DNA from: an uncultured bacterium
Lineage (GTDB): Bacteria > Krumholzibacteriota > Krumholzibacteriia > Krumholzibacteriales > Krumholzibacteriaceae
DNA length: 32,184 nucleotides
Direction of reading: 5' to 3'
Assembly: GCA_965371515.1 (NCBI GenBank)
Contig: CBDUYR010000029.1
Location: forward strand, 1 to 32,184
The position numbers were made by a program. This document shows, in pieces, positions 1-9,000 of this stretch (positions are counted from its first letter, which is position 1; each line of letters begins with the position of its first letter).

Positions 1-3000
1 GGCCGCAACGGCAGGGGCGACGTAGTGAGGAACGGAGTATACATCTGCAAGATAACGGCCGGCGGGAAATCCGCGATGTTCAAGATCGCGGTGGCCAAGT
101 AGGTGGAGACGGATGAAGAGAGTACTTGAAATAACGCTGATCATCGCTCTCGGACTCTGTCCGCTCGGCGCTGCCGCGCAGGACGGAGGCGGGGGAACGA
201 GGTCGGTCTTCATTCTCGGCGCCGGGTCGCGGGCCATCTCAATGGGCGGGGCCTTCACCGCCGTGGCTGATGACGCTTCGGCCGTCTTCTACAATCCCGC
301 GGCGATGAAGATCAACGGGGCTCCCACGCTGATGGCGAACCACATCTCGCTCTTCTCCGGATTCACCGACGCGAGCTACGATTATCTCGGGCTCGTCTGG
401 CCGACTCTCGGGGCAGGATCGTTCGGAGCCGGGCTGCTCACGACGGGAACGGGCGGTATCAAGGGCTTCGACGAGTTCAGCAGACCGACCGGGGAGCTCT
501 CGTACAGAGAGAGCCTGGGAATCGTCTCGTATGCGTTCGACATGCCGTGGCGATTCGCCGGCACATGGTCAGTAGGGACATCGATAAAGATCCTCAACCA
601 GAGGATCGGGGATTACTCCGATACGGGCACGGGCCTCGACCTGGGGCTGCTGTACCGCATTAAATATATAGATGGGCTGACCTTCGGTATGAACCTTCAG
701 GATATAGTGGGGGCGAAGACGAAGCTGGTCTCGGCCAGCGATGAAGTATACAGAACGATGATGTTCGGCCTCGGGTACAGAAGGGCGCTCGGGGAGAGCT
801 CGAGACTGACCGTGTCGGTCCAGATGGACATGCCGGAGAAGGCAGACAACGACCTGAGGTTCGGCGCGGAATACACGATCCGCAACATGATCAGCATCAG
901 GATGGGATACGATTCCGAATCGTTCACGGCCGGCATTGGATTCGCATGGCACGGATACTCCTTCGACTACGGATATTTCAGCAGGGAAGAGGCTGGGAGC
1001 TCTCACCCGATCACGATAACCGCCAGGCTCGGGACACCGCTCGAGCAGCAAAGCGCAGAGAGGGAGGAGATTCGCAGGGCCGAGGATGAGAGAAGGCTCA
1101 CCGAACTCTTCGCCGTTCGAGTTGCTTCACACATCGACGCTGCCGACAGCCTGAGAGGAGCCGGTGAGCAGGAGAGCGCACTCGATGAGGTCAAGATAGC
1201 GCTCGAATACGATCCGGGCAACGAGCGGGCCGCGACGCTGCGTGACGAGATCGGTGTGGAGATTCTCGCCGTCCAGGCGGAGCGTACGAAGAACGCCGAG
1301 AAGTCACTTCTGATCAACCAGCATTTCAGACTCGGATTCGAGCACTATAACGCTAACGAGTATATTCTCGCCAGGACCGAAATGCGCAACGTCCTCGAGA
1401 TCGATTCGGAGAACGAGCAGGCGCATGACTACTTGCGCAGAACCGAGGAGAAACTGGACGATCAGCTCCAGTCACACCTCACAGAGGCGGAGGGACATGA
1501 AAGGGCCGGCAGGCTCCCCGAGGCGCTCGGTGAGTGGAACGTCGTCAGGATGATCGATCCCGATAACGCGGATGCTCCAGTGGCCATAGAGCGGATCAAG
1601 GACCGCATAAACAGCATGAGCAGGAGTTACAAGGATGCCAGCCGCAGGCTCGAGACGATCGACCTCTTCGAGAAGGCCGTGACGGCGTTCAGCGAGGGAA
1701 AGTACGAGGACGCGATTACGCTCGCTCGCCGGGTCCTCCAGCTCGATCCGGCCCACGAGCTTGCTAAGGACCTGATCAACAGGGCGGAGCGGAGGATGAA
1801 ACCTCTCAGCGACGACGAGAATGAACAGATAAAGAACCTCCATAAAGAAGGCATGAAATACTCCACACAGAAGGAATATGAGAAGGCGATAGATGCCTGG
1901 GAGAAGATCCTCGATATAGATCCGGATAACGAGGGCGTCAGAAAGAACATCGAGGAGGCGAAGCGGCGGCTCAGAAAACTCGAGTCGTCCGAAGGCGGAT
2001 AAGTGAAGAAAGAACTCCTTAGGGACAGAGAGACATTTCACCTGGAAATCCCGGCCGACGAGAACAACCTCAGCGAGGTCAGGGATTTCATCGCAGAGGT
2101 GTGCGTAAAGGCCGGTTTCTCCAAGCGCGAGACGAATAACACGAAGCTCGCGATGGACGAGGCCTGTACCAACATCATCAAGCACGCCTACTACGACAAG
2201 GCCGGGACGATACGAATAGACGTTCAGGCGGAGCCAGGCAAGGTCGAGATCAATATCTTCGACAGGGGTAAACCCTTCGACTGGTCAGGTGTGAAGGACC
2301 CCGACCTGCAGAAATACGTCGAGATCGGTAAAAAGGGTGGCCTCGGGATCTTCTTGATGAACAGGTTGATGGACGATCTGGACTACCAGGCGTCCGAGAG
2401 CGGCAACCGGCTCTACATGCTTAAAATGGCCGGTACCGGGAGAGACAGGCCGCTGTTCTTCTCGATCAAACGGAAATGGACATCGACCCTCAGGTTCAAA
2501 TTCGCCTTCAGAGCGACCCTCGGGCTCCTCGGCCTGGTCTTTTTCCTCTGGGCAATCCAGTTCGTCAACCAGTCCAGGGATGTCGCCGAGAGGACCAGTG
2601 AGGCATGGGCGTCTATGGAGAGCTTCGCCAACGCGGTGGAGTCAAAGAGCGAACCGGCGATGATCAGGGATGACCTGTACGATCCCGAGTACCTGGAGCT
2701 CACCGATTTTGTGATGGAACGCGTTGTGAAGCACCCCGCGGTCATCTATGCGAGGATCGTCAACAACGACGGGACGATAGTTTCCTCGAACGACGTCGAG
2801 GAGTTCATGAATCGTTATCAGATACCCGTGAGTGCGGAAAAGCTCGATGACAAGGGGACGTGGATCACCGTGGAGGGGTCGAAAGGCGATAAAATAAGGG
2901 AGCTGCACATCCCGATACGTATCACGCGGGATAACGCCGAAAACGTGACTTCGCTCGGACGTATAGTCGTCGGTGTTTCAGAAAAAGTGATAATGAACAG

Positions 3001-6000: not shown

Positions 6001-9000
6001 ACCGGTCCAGAAAAGAAAACAAGAACCAGTTGTAGAAGATGAGGTCAAGGAGGACCCTGAACCGGTTAACGCCTTCCGGTCAGATCCGCTGCCCGCGAAA
6101 CCCATAGAGCCGCAGATTGAGAAGGCCGGCGTCGAACCGATCGAGCCCGCGGCGAGGGAACACGTCGAGACCCTCGACGTCAAACTCGATCTTTCCGATA
6201 AGGTCGACGAAGCCGAGGGGAAGGATGGCAGGATCCGCAAGCTGGGATGGGGAGAATACGGCAAGAAACTGTTCGCGCGAAACAGAAAGAGGGATGGGAG
6301 GAAGAAGAAGGAATGAAGAGTTTCGCGATAATGACGCTGAAGGGGGGCACGGGGAAGACGACGACGGCGGTCAGCCTGGCGCACGGCCTGACCCTGAGCG
6401 GGCGGAAAGTCCTTCTCGTGGACTGCGATCCGCAGCGAAATGTCGCCGTCACTTTCGGTGTCAAGGGAGAAAAGGGGCTCGACGGCCTTCTGATGACCGG
6501 CGACGTCGACATCATCCAGGTAAGGGAGAACTTATTCATCATAGATTCCGGCGGGCGGAGGCTTGTCGAAGTCGAGCTGCAGCTCGGGAGGCAGGAGAAA
6601 CGGGAAGGAAGACTCCGGGACGCCCTGAAGCATCTCAAAGGGTGCGATTATGTCATCTGCGACTGCCCCCCGTCGATGAACCTGATAAGCATCAACGCGC
6701 TTGCCTACTGCGACGAGGTGATAGTACCGGTCGGTATGGACTACCTCTCCGAGGTGGGGGTGCACCAGACGATGGAGATCATCGAGGAGATCGGGTGGAT
6801 CACGGAAAAGAGCTCGATCGAATACAGGATACTGCCGACTTTTTTCGATTCCCGTACCAGGATATCCAGGACAGTGCTGGATGCCCTCAGGGAGCATTTC
6901 GGAGAGAGGATGTTCGGCACGGTGATCAGGATAAATACGGCGATAAGGGAAGCTCCGGGCTCCAACAAGACGATATACGAGCACGCCCCCCTGTCGAGGG
7001 GAGCGTACGATTACTACAAGTTTACCGAAGAGGTGCTCGCTCTCGAGAAAGAGAGCTGAGGCATCCGCCGGCAGACCTGTTTTACTGTATTCCGTGGAGG
7101 AGATATGGTATTATCCCTGCTTGCGGAAGGAGATCCTTTTGGACAGTTTCGAGTTGAGAGAAGAGATACGTCACGGCGGGGCGAGTTATTTCCTGCAGAC
7201 GAGCTACAACTCTGAGAACGAGCAGATACAGAGTTCGTTTTTCAGGGACGGGGCGGTCTTTGACACGATGGTCAGAAAGGCCGGCGGGGATACGGAACCC
7301 GAGGAGCTCAGGGAACTTACGAAGGAGATCCATCAGCAGAACAAGCAGAGCTTCCGGTTCATCCTTGACGCGAGGGATAACATCGGCAAGTCGGACGATC
7401 CCAATCCGCATCTCAGGCTGGCCGAGACCCTTCTGAGGAGGAACCTCTTCCACGAGGCGATTGCCGAGGCCGAGACAGCGGTGGAAAAGGGAGCGAACGA
7501 TTCGCGGGCCTGGATGGTGATCGGAGAGGCGCTTTACCGGATGGACGAGTTTGATATGGCGCTTGACGCTATCCGCAAGGGGCTCGAGCTCAGTCCCGAC
7601 TATCCTGACCTGCATAACCTGATAGGGAAGATATTCCTCAAGCAGAATATGTGCGGGATGGCTGTCGAGAGCTTCAAGAAGGCGATCGGCCTGAACATGT
7701 ATTACGGTGAGCCATATCTCAACCTGATCCGGACCTACCTGGCCAACACGATCGTCAAGCAGGACTACGAGCTTTCCAGGGACCTTGAGGAAAAATTCTC
7801 ATCGAACCTCGAGAAGGCCAGGCAGCTCAATCCCAACCTGAAGGATGGGATAATCGAAGACTTGAAGGCCCATTTCGAACGGGAGGAGTACGAGGAGACA
7901 CTGAAACTCCTCGACGGGATCGGATCGGCCAGTGGCCGCAGCCTCGTAGACGACATCATCCTCGAGCTCTACCTGATGCTCGTCCAAAGCGGAGACGAGA
8001 TCGAGGAGGAGGATATAGATAAATACCTCGAAAAGGTTGGTGAGATACTGGACAGAAATCCCACCTTTGCAGACGCATGGAACTCGCTTGGCATCCTTTA
8101 TACTGCAAAATGCAAGATATTCATGGACAAGGCGAGCGATGCATTCAAAAAGGCTCTTGAGATAAATCAGGATTACGAAAAAGCGAGAAAAAACCTTAGG
8201 CTTGCGGAGAACGACCGACAAGGAATTTTTATCCTTTTAAAGGCATTATTGGACTAAAAGTTGCACTAATAGATCCGAGGAACCTATAACAGGACAGTCA
8301 ACGTATGGACAAACTGCTTATTGATGAAGAAAAGGTCGAGGACGTCGTAGTCCTGAAGCTCCAGGGGCTGGTCGATTCCGGCACGTCCCAGCTGATTGAA
8401 GGGCGGCTCAACGATGTGATTTCTGGCGGTAACGTCAAGATCGTCGTGGACCTCGATCTCGTGGATTACATAAGTTCCGCCGGTTGGGGGATATTCGTCG
8501 GTGAGATCAAGGGCGTCAGACAGAGCAACGGTGATATCAAGCTCGCCTCGATGCGTCCCGATGTACGGGAGGTATTCGACCTGCTCGAGTTCGACACCCT
8601 GCTTACACCGTACGATTCCCGGGGGGATGCTCTGGCAGCGTTCGAAGTAAAAGAAAAAAGCGAATTTGCCTGAGCCTGGATGCAAAGGGAGCAAAACAGA
8701 TGAACGACATCAATATTTCTTTTTCGAAACCTGACGAGAATCCCGATGTATCGGTCATATCGGTCAAGGGATATGTCGACACCACGACCTCGACCGAGCT
8801 CGAGGAGAGTCTCAAGCGCCTGTTGGGCAGGGGACAGTACGACATCGTTATCGATCTCGGCAACGTCAACTACATCAGCTCAGCCGGATGGGGTATATTC
8901 ATAAGCGAGATAAAGGAAATCCGGGAAAACGGCGGGGACCTTAAACTTGCCGCCATGATCGGTGATGTCTACGAGGTCTTCGAACTTCTCGAATTCCAGA

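Follow-up and report, generated by a model that had tools for sequence, protein, structure and literature searches.

What does a partner-switching module control when its kinase, phosphatase and substrates are carried on one chain, and does it still act through a sigma factor? The question is raised by a 32,184-nt stretch of DNA (the window) from an uncultured sediment bacterium of the order Krumholzibacteriales. One gene of the window (2003–6316, GTG start; like all features described below, on the + strand) encodes a 1437-aa fused protein with sensor kinase, phosphatase, helix-turn-helix (HTH) and three STAS domains. Judged from its sequence, it has every one of the three partner-switch components, with catalytic and phosphoacceptor residues intact. 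The fusion alone is unsurprising, because all-in-one partner switches have been described before, while the present version is unstudied. The matter of interest is a putative adhesion/biofilm switch, conserved and unstudied, of several uncultured phyla: most likely, the fused protein has matrix and a giant adhesin of the cell surface under its control, not a stress sigma factor.

Architecture and conservation of the fused protein

The single 1437-aa ORF reported in the genome-wide survey's note is unbroken, with no internal stop codon. A second-run contig shows no differences from window 815–6284, but this support is not fully independent because both come from the same study. The same note stated that the protein is kept in every sampled genome of the order, and all 40 order genomes, the source genome included, give a strong match (best E per genome 0 to 1.5e-190; the genomes are a sample of the phylum). 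Specifically, 30 give one long hit and six give two listed hits in one frame; in the remaining four, the first hit alone is listed (one), or the gene lies at a contig end (one), is split over contigs (one) or is frameshifted (one). The order-wide matches and the second-run contig rule out an assembly chimera or read-through artefact.

Pfam and fold comparison define the domain order kinase-TM-Cache-TM-HAMP-PP2C-HTH-STAS×3, largely as the note had described it. The N-terminal domain (2027–2428) is an RsbW/SpoIIAB-type GHKL serine kinase with N, G1 and G2 boxes (HATPase_c_2, residues 16–140, 1.6e-28). It aligns to RsbW (6m36, E 3.6e-14), its closest relative among solved structures, and key residues E53, N57, H61, D87, G89, G113 and G115 are invariant in 112/112 full-length homologs. 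The two membrane helices of the note are present as hydrophobicity peaks at residues 167–185 and 344–362. The segment between them, which the note did not name, is a periplasmic single Cache (PDC) sensor domain (2495–3088 with TM1 and TM2; hydrophobicity and structure model). The model of the Cache region has a pLDDT of 84, and its top fold match is the WalK sensor (4ywz, Z 14.9, rmsd 3.0, 139 aligned), followed by DctB and CitA. HAMP (residues 359–403) and a coiled-coil linker lead into an RsbU/SpoIIE-type PP2C phosphatase (3077–4000; Pfam, PDB comparison), with the SpoIIE match at residues 470–665 (2.4e-50). Its five metal-binding aspartates (D461, D479, D605, D657 and D658) are invariant in 112/112, and its best PDB match is Rv1364c (3ke6, E 6.7e-15).

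The HTH that follows (4010–4402) had been placed at residues 678–735. An HTH is indeed there, but it is a two-subdomain module that reaches to about residue 800 (670–800), of which Pfam HTH_23 (678–722) covers only a part. The bipartite module resembles the DNA-binding region with which IS481-family transposases begin, and it matches positions 2–112 of the 284 of NF033577 in 24/24 aligned members. The catalytic integrase-core domain is missing; an acidic linker and the STAS domains come next instead. The module is modelled with a pLDDT of 89, and TnsB, IstA, Tc3 and SETMAR fill the top rows of a fold search, with Z scores of only 5.7–6.8. It sits in the PP2C frame in 76/77 loci, with an identity of about 70–76% and invariant A695, C696, S702, T705, Y707, G754 and R783. 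Because it is fixed in frame after the PP2C across phyla and has no catalytic part, the HTH is domesticated, not mobile. On the same grounds, an IS insertion into the fused gene is ruled out.

Tethered and free STAS domains

Three STAS domains follow, as previously assigned from Pfam: STAS1 (4691–4990; S945 in YISSGGWG), STAS2 (5177–5470; S1107 in YVSSAGWG) and STAS3 (5669–5953; S1267 in YISSSGWG), the last being the most divergent. Alignment of STAS1 with SpoIIAA and its S58A mutant puts a serine at the phosphoacceptor position, S945 corresponding to SpoIIAA S58 and the RsbV site. The note had left these serines and the catalytic residues unchecked; like the latter, each of the three serines is invariant in 112/112 full-length homologs. 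Downstream genes encode two free STAS proteins, A (8305–8673) and B (8700–9101), both with YISSAGWG. The STAS domains score above the cut-off of TIGR00377, a model for anti-sigma antagonists, and a Leu-to-Trp change following the phosphoserine marks a private STAS family. In a STAS tree of 103 columns, with long-branch outgroups and many open forks, the five copies form separate orthologous lineages, and protein B falls with the single STAS found in other phyla, a grouping of weak support.

Across loci, the kinase-sensor-PP2C-HTH core occurs in several uncultured phyla, usually with STAS on the next gene, and the three-STAS fusion is lineage-specific. Specifically, STAS lies in the PP2C-bearing frame in only 16/77 loci from other genomes. 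Of the unfused STAS genes, 42/46 carry a 96–186-aa extension, and in 36 of these 42 the terminal motif resembles the second HTH subdomain; the extension is absent from the free STAS of fused loci, and plain 120-aa STAS occur in three unfused loci and in family f8. The note concluded that switching must be intramolecular or between subunits. Either is plausible, because the catalytic and phosphoacceptor residues are intact, but "must" is too strong, since tethering is dispensable and two free STAS with the same signature lie downstream.

Operon, promoters and candidate outputs

The window opens with the last 33 codons (1–102) of a gene for a giant secreted protein, which is Ig-like (Big_1/invasin-D3) and has a FlgD_ig-type C-terminal sorting domain. 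Their translation is nearly identical to the C-terminus of a 4382-aa giant from a same-genus genome, and the N-terminus of the giant gene lies at the end of another contig of the source genome (C49; tblastn 69%). Next comes a PorV/PorQ-like outer-membrane barrel with C-terminal TPRs (113–2002; NF033709, E 6.4e-32, 111 bits vs a cut-off of 90). The PorV-like gene is upstream of the kinase gene in 70/77 loci, the remaining seven starting at a contig edge. An ORF of at least 1000 aa precedes it in 50 of the 52 loci with room, and six of eight such large proteins scanned with Pfam have Ig-like and FlgD_ig domains. Downstream, the ParA gene and two STAS genes of the note are present, but a TPR gene between ParA and STAS had been omitted (7094–8257, start codon uncertain); it accompanies the module in several lineages. 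An intrinsic-terminator-like hairpin (9126–9157; 14-pair stem and T run) closes the unit. Beyond it are genes for a VWA-like membrane protein (9219–11372), syntenic in the phylum and Eisenbacteria, and a secreted LTD/FlgD_ig protein (12846–14525), syntenic with the VWA gene.

The orphan ParA/Soj-like ATPase gene (6313–7059) starts at ATG 6313, overlapping the stop of the fused gene, and its deviant Walker A KGGTGKT is intact (K10, G11, G12, T13, G14, K15 and T16 invariant in 30/30). The fused protein ends in a basic tail (6185–6313) with a W-x-x-Y-x-K-K-L helix, a predicted ParA dock; W1416 is kept in 111/112 and Y1419 in 110/112 full-length homologs. The tail motif, defined after inspection of ParA-linked tails that represent only two or three related lineages, occurs in 29/36 proteins with an adjacent ParA and 0/40 without. 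The predicted ParA-tail complex, modelled with ligands and custom alignments outside the tool's calibration, scores 0.78, a mark reached by 116/157 solved pairs and 2/215 mismatched pairs, vs 0.38 for the best control. Model runs agree in at least 87% of contacts (partner pLDDT 72). The ParA-like ATPase is thereby predicted to bind the C-terminal helix of the fused protein.

This model would also suit a scaffold, in which the many STAS domains form, where secretion takes place, an assembly resembling a stressosome or a sink for phosphate. The five separately kept STAS lineages fit it, as does the orphan ParA PpfA, which positions chemoreceptor clusters (PMC9178275). We nevertheless consider a scaffold very unlikely: ParA is missing beside the gene in 40/76 scored loci that keep the HTH, and most lineages manage with a single STAS. 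Such a scaffold would have HTH and ParA tether the complex to the nucleoid non-specifically, affecting the place of adhesin export, not gene expression.

Promoters provide a further view of the output. A sigma54 −24/−12 motif, first spotted by eye in Gibbs output and then tested, precedes the giant gene in 18/33 loci (0.4 expected) and in the source genome also; 15/33 lack it. The + strand of the window has no such motif, and a sigma70-like promoter scan gave chance level. A palindrome, TTGCA-N3-TGC, precedes the sigma54 site with constant spacing in 10/19 giant-gene promoters (1.85 expected). It occurs at diguanylate cyclase (DGC) promoters in 2/23 (2.6 expected), and since this count is at expectation, the palindrome is not common to the two sets. 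A Gibbs search in the DNA upstream of 31 giant genes identified no HTH operator and no motif common to all lineages; information content was 11.6 vs 10.5 shuffled for a 16-mer and 14.7 vs 11.8 for a 26-mer, the latter a loose AT-rich pattern that we take to be IHF-like.

These data bear on a direct transcriptional output, in which STAS phosphorylation would gate the IS481-like HTH and the protein would be a membrane-bound, sigma-free regulator at a specific operator. The in-frame HTH with its invariant residues, the HTH-like ends of extended unfused STAS and the palindrome all point in that direction. However, the palindrome is of the LuxO/SypG enhancer type (PMC10162802), so that a sigma54 activator explains it better than the HTH does. 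Moreover, only 1/12 promoters without a sigma54 site has the palindrome despite a kept HTH, the Gibbs search was negative, and plain STAS occur. We therefore regard direct output as rather unlikely. It is compatible with the SypE/SypA- or SiaABCD-like reading set out below, as a final step. Similarly, we are doubtful of a fuller sigma-free scheme for several uncultured phyla, in which STAS phosphorylation would directly gate the domesticated HTH on the membrane sensor, a dedicated ParA would sit on the tail and bring the complex to the nucleoid, and both together would control a giant-adhesin and c-di-GMP/exopolysaccharide programme driven by sigma54.

The DGC gene itself has a sigma54 −24/−12 motif in 23/24 cases (0.18 expected). 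Eleven loci, with the labels Zixibacteria, Ignavibacteria or unnamed, have GGDEF and Wza/Wzc genes downstream; in ten of them the GGDEF gene comes directly after the STAS gene. This adjacent DGC-exopolysaccharide block is limited to 11/77 loci; in the source genome it is unlinked (contig C16). The DGC of the source genome matches the adjacent DGCs over the GAF-GGDEF part only (35–39%), so its orthology is partly based on synteny. No bEBP gene was found in loci L031–L147 with one bEBP of the source genome as query.

A canonical anti-sigma switch like Rv1364c/RsbW, in which the kinase would sequester a sigma factor encoded elsewhere, to be freed by the STAS domains, draws on the RsbW-like kinase and the TIGR00377 matches. 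The source genome has 13 sigma70-family matches, any of which could be the target; its sigma factors include two of group 2 that are RpoS/RpoD-like and several of ECF size. Against this, none of six TIGR02980 matches in this 99.6% complete genome passes the SigB/F/G cut-off, although the control passes it in only 1/14 genomes. Loci L031–L147 contain no sigma70-family gene but one (in L059), unlike a separate kinase-STAS pair of the source genome on contig C46, which adjoins an ECF sigma gene; and the Leu-to-Trp change marks a private STAS family. We consider this switch unlikely.

By analogy with characterised systems, we favour, with modest confidence, an adhesion/biofilm switch that resembles SypE/SypA or SiaABCD and needs no sigma factor; the activity of the enzymes, their pairing with substrates, the direction of control and the output are what we infer here. 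The fused protein would be an inner-membrane sensor working like Vibrio fischeri SypE/SypA or Pseudomonas aeruginosa SiaABC. The periplasmic Cache would act through TM-HAMP on the PP2C switch, which would set the balance with the N-terminal serine kinase, read as the phosphorylation state of the dedicated "WG" STAS family, three tethered and two free. That state, in place of SigB/F-type sigma factor release, would be the output. It may govern surface adhesion and matrix via the giant PorV-secreted Ig-like protein heading the same operon and, probably, a DGC/exopolysaccharide pathway. The ParA-like ATPase, bound to the C-terminal helix, would likely position the complex, and the domesticated HTH could provide transcriptional feedback or a nucleoid anchor.

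Comparison with known partner switches

A literature search, limited mostly to openly available main texts, found no anti-sigma work on Krumholzibacteria, and for a domesticated IS481 HTH of this type it returned only unrelated papers; a survey of domain architectures may nevertheless mention the fusion. The signalling partner in systems of the PpfA/TlpT type has a basic terminal peptide. There, too, an orphan ParA is encoded beside a signalling protein (PMC9178275); in our case the predicted partner peptide is C-terminal, on a membrane kinase/phosphatase. The HTH module shares two subdomains with IS481-family transposases and differs in being without the catalytic part.

The note's statement that the components are separate proteins in known systems is contradicted by Mycobacterium tuberculosis Rv1364c and by SypE. 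Rv1364c, a single chain that combines PAS, PP2C, kinase and STAS, phosphorylates and dephosphorylates its own STAS at Ser600 (PMC9138534, PMC10950880). The fused protein likewise unites both enzymes, a PP2C and a GHKL serine kinase, with a STAS substrate. However, Rv1364c is soluble, 653 aa long, ordered PAS-PP2C-kinase-STAS with one STAS, and tied to SigF. In the present protein the kinase is N-terminal and the sensor is a periplasmic Cache, flanked by two TM helices and followed by HAMP; an HTH, three STAS domains and the ParA-linked tail are further differences.

In SiaABCD, a PP2C/kinase pair balances STAS-like SiaC (PMC7647112, PMC8457831), which activates the DGC SiaD (PMC8457831). Likewise, in some relatives of the fused protein the gene after STAS encodes a DGC, and the SiaA model matches residues 340–665, below cut-off. 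In contrast, SiaA, B and C are separate proteins, SiaC is phosphorylated on Thr68, and no HTH is reported.

SypE is a kinase-REC-PP2C protein and, like the fused protein, has an N-terminal kinase, a central input and a C-terminal PP2C; its PP2C acts on a STAS protein, the downstream effector, in a polysaccharide/biofilm context (PMC10120452), under a sigma54-dependent activator (PMC10162802). It is still not known through which outputs SypA and other non-canonical STAS proteins work (PMC10120452). The fused-protein family offers candidate outputs encoded in the same gene or in its neighbour, namely a transposase-derived HTH, a DGC and a ParA dock, and its natural fused and unfused versions allow direct comparison of how substrate tethering affects switch behaviour. 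Unlike SypE, the fused protein has a TM-Cache-TM-HAMP input in place of REC (no Pfam REC match), and it adds to the SypE/SypA plan an HTH, tethered STAS and the operon of a giant T9SS-like adhesin.

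Conservation of the fused protein

The fused protein is encoded by a single uninterrupted frame of 1437 codons (2003-6316, forward strand), and the region 815-6284 is matched with 0 differences by a contig that a second run of the same study produced. This frame, together with Pfam and NCBIfam domain matches, bears out the genome-wide survey's note, which had placed kinase, PP2C, helix-turn-helix (HTH) and three STAS domains on one polypeptide. Of 7997 candidates scored in a protein search, 1031 matched at E<=1e-20; the 112 proteins of at least 1330 aa among the best 120 matches were aligned. 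The catalytic residues and STAS phosphoacceptor serines, left unchecked in the survey, are present and invariant in 112/112 homologs (kinase E53, N57, H61, D87, G89, G113 and G115; PP2C D461, D479, D605, D657 and D658; STAS S945, S1107 and S1267). S945 of STAS1 lines up with SpoIIAA S58, as checked against the S58A structure. Each of the five STAS domains encoded here has a Trp three residues after the Ser (WG-type), a feature absent from the other STAS domains of this genome with a readable motif.

Hydrophobicity peaks at residues 167-185 and 344-362 mark two transmembrane helices. The region between them is predicted to fold as a single Cache domain (model pLDDT 84), and the fold search matched the WalK sensor (Z 14.9, rmsd 3.0, 139 aligned). 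The bipartite HTH (residues 670-800) matches an IS481 transposase model; specifically, 24/24 aligned members match its N-terminal 112 positions and none matches its catalytic part. The HTH fold matches are transposase DNA-binding regions, with modest Z of 5.7-6.8. Inter-domain linkers are acidic and not conserved, while the last 40 residues are basic and contain a conserved W-x-x-Y-x-K-K-L helix.

Consistent with the earlier claim of retention throughout Krumholzibacteriales, a strong match was found in 40/40 genomes of the order (151 genomes of the phylum searched). Among families outside the order, strong matches occur in f7 (16/17), f9 (9/9), f8 (5/9, unfused form) and f5 (1/5, with two STAS); f4 (0/10) and f6 (0/61) gave only generic HAMP-PP2C matches with this query. 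The fusion is genuine and kept by selection. In genome G078 (loci L037 and L038), the gene is broken inside the HTH, with parts ~870 kb apart on one chromosome, reflecting rearrangement or misassembly.

Relatives with separate STAS genes

A profile of residues 1-805 found at least 617 related stretches in species genomes, the best 80 of which gave 77 loci. Their record titles name Krumholzibacteriota, Latescibacterota, Eisenbacteria, Zixibacteria, KSB1, Calditrichota, FCPU426, Ignavibacteria and others (MAG labels as written). Among these best-scoring loci, the HTH lies within the PP2C frame in 76/77, STAS is fused in 16/77 (two further fused loci are frameshifted assemblies) and a separate STAS gene is present in 59. 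Thus, what is conserved is a kinase-sensor-PP2C-HTH protein accompanied by a WG-type STAS, and triple tethering is an elaboration of one lineage. Of the 150 best cluster representatives, 12 have fused STAS; the commonest forms are kinase-PP2C-HTH proteins, either with TPRs or lacking them. KSB1/Calditrichota-type members (loci L121, L123 and L140; representatives P0189, P0196 and others) carry TPR arrays instead of the STAS tail, some reaching 1800-2250 aa. Unfused STAS proteins of other phyla ending in a copy of the second IS481-like HTH subdomain are found at L088 12433-13101, L093 13516-14316, L121 13646-14299 and elsewhere.

Unfused STAS genes have a long extension in 42/46 cases, 36 of these 42 ending like the second HTH subdomain, and the free STAS of fused loci (8305-8673 and 8700-9101 here) lack it. 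This pattern favors the HTH as a direct output gated by STAS, a reading that we consider unlikely; the promoter palindrome described below speaks against it.

Probable operon, sigma54 motifs and sigma factors

An ORF of at least 1000 aa precedes the PorV-like gene (113-2002) in 50/52 loci with room upstream; of the other two, one is split in the assembly and one has its start miscalled. Big_1, invasin-D3, CARDB or FlgD_ig domains occur in 6/8 of these giant proteins scanned. Here the giant gene ends at 1-102 and starts at the end of contig C49. Intergenic spacings of 10, 0 and -4 nt, with a terminator placed at 9126-9157, suggest a single transcription unit from the giant gene through the second STAS. 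Upstream of the giant gene (L064 3488-6480, L070 1549-7133), a DUF4388 protein, a second PorV-like gene and exported glycogen-binding (AMPK-CBM/CBM48) proteins are conserved in the phylum. An AT-richer 465-aa membrane protein without Pfam match (11314-12711, reverse strand) lies between VWA and LTD genes that adjoin directly in most relatives, and after the LTD gene come two long ORFs of 661 and 521 aa without Pfam match (14758-18324).

With the -24/-12 consensus of PMC10162802, a sigma54 motif was found at the giant gene start in 18/33 loci (0.4 expected; five giants with a frame beginning mid-gene excluded), namely 13/13 loci from our genomes of the phylum, 4/4 Eisenbacteria and one KSB1. 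The remaining 15 have no motif, three having short or uncertain upstream sequence. The genome under study has the motif at C49:19055, rpoN and 22 sigma54-activator matches, 18 of them strong. The palindrome TTGCA-N3-TGC accompanies the giant-gene sigma54 site in 10/19 promoters (1.85 expected) and occurs in 1/12 without that site. It lies 244-276 nt upstream of the site in the order (276 nt at C49, locus L149, palindrome at 18779) and 127-129 nt upstream in Eisenbacteria. It looks like a LuxO/SypG enhancer, but the C49 copy can also be read as a sigma70 -35 box. Being the sole conserved palindrome, its enhancer-like appearance and its near absence where the sigma54 site is absent argue against HTH output.

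A diguanylate cyclase (GGDEF) gene with Wza/Wzc-type genes lies downstream in 11 loci, immediately after the STAS gene in 10. Contig C16 of this genome has a similar exopolysaccharide block (L148, 3853-18052). Its first gene, of GAF-GGDEF type, is preceded at 53 nt by a sigma54 motif and leads Wza, Wzc, tyrosine kinase, sugar transferase, sensor kinase and sigma54 activator genes. Across scored loci related to this block, the first gene has the motif in 23/24 (0.18 expected; a further locus was too short and was excluded).

Loci L031-L147 contain no sigma70-family gene except one in L059. This genome has no SigB/F/G over the cut-off, and its 13 sigma70 matches comprise 6 classified and 7 ECF-sized frames; a canonical anti-sigma acting on an unlinked sigma is quite improbable. 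Other partner-switch sets are a kinase and STAS adjoining an ECF sigma (C46 6196-8087, L179) and a HAMP-PP2C adjoining a kinase-STAS fusion (C12 28893-31630).

ParA, output and known systems

The W-x-x-Y-x-K-K-L motif, defined post hoc and scored among non-independent kin, is present within the final 50 residues in 29/36 loci with adjacent ParA (6313-7059 here) and 0/40 without, against a background of 4/2327 long frames. Of 96 rows, 20 were excluded because they were truncated, frameshifted, duplicate or ambiguous; these include two ParA rows with the motif, two ParA rows without a scored motif and a frameshifted fragment in which the motif matched at the end of the HTH. For the predicted ParA2-tail2-ATP-Mg complex, the score was 0.78 versus 0.38 for the best control, outside the tool's exact calibration; the mark is reached by 116/157 solved and 2/215 mismatched pairs. 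Contact agreement between runs is at least 87% (partner pLDDT 72), and the best predicted contacts join tail W1416, Y1419, G1420 and L1423 to the conserved C-terminal helix of ParA. That the protein is a positioning scaffold seems highly unlikely.

Most likely, on balance, the system is an adhesion/matrix switch like SypE/SypA and SiaABCD. A periplasmic signal would pass via HAMP to the PP2C switch, PP2C would oppose the kinase, and the resulting STAS phosphorylation state would serve as output and influence adhesion and matrix, no SigB-type sigma being involved. Given the sigma54 promoter, the link to a diguanylate cyclase and exopolysaccharide, and the tail-ParA test, the question of output becomes concretely testable.

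A literature search of limited coverage found no papers on this family. The survey's observation was confirmed and its interpretation supported in part: single-polypeptide fusion is already known from Rv1364c, described in PMC9138534 and PMC10950880 as an "entire toolbox" on one polypeptide that modifies its own STAS Ser600. According to PMC10120452, SypE is a kinase-REC-PP2C protein whose STAS is the downstream effector with unknown target; PMC7647112 and PMC8457831 describe SiaABC as setting the SiaC balance, SiaC activating SiaD. PpfA (review PMC9178275) was also compared. The fused protein probably works like these systems, yet its architecture places it in none of them.
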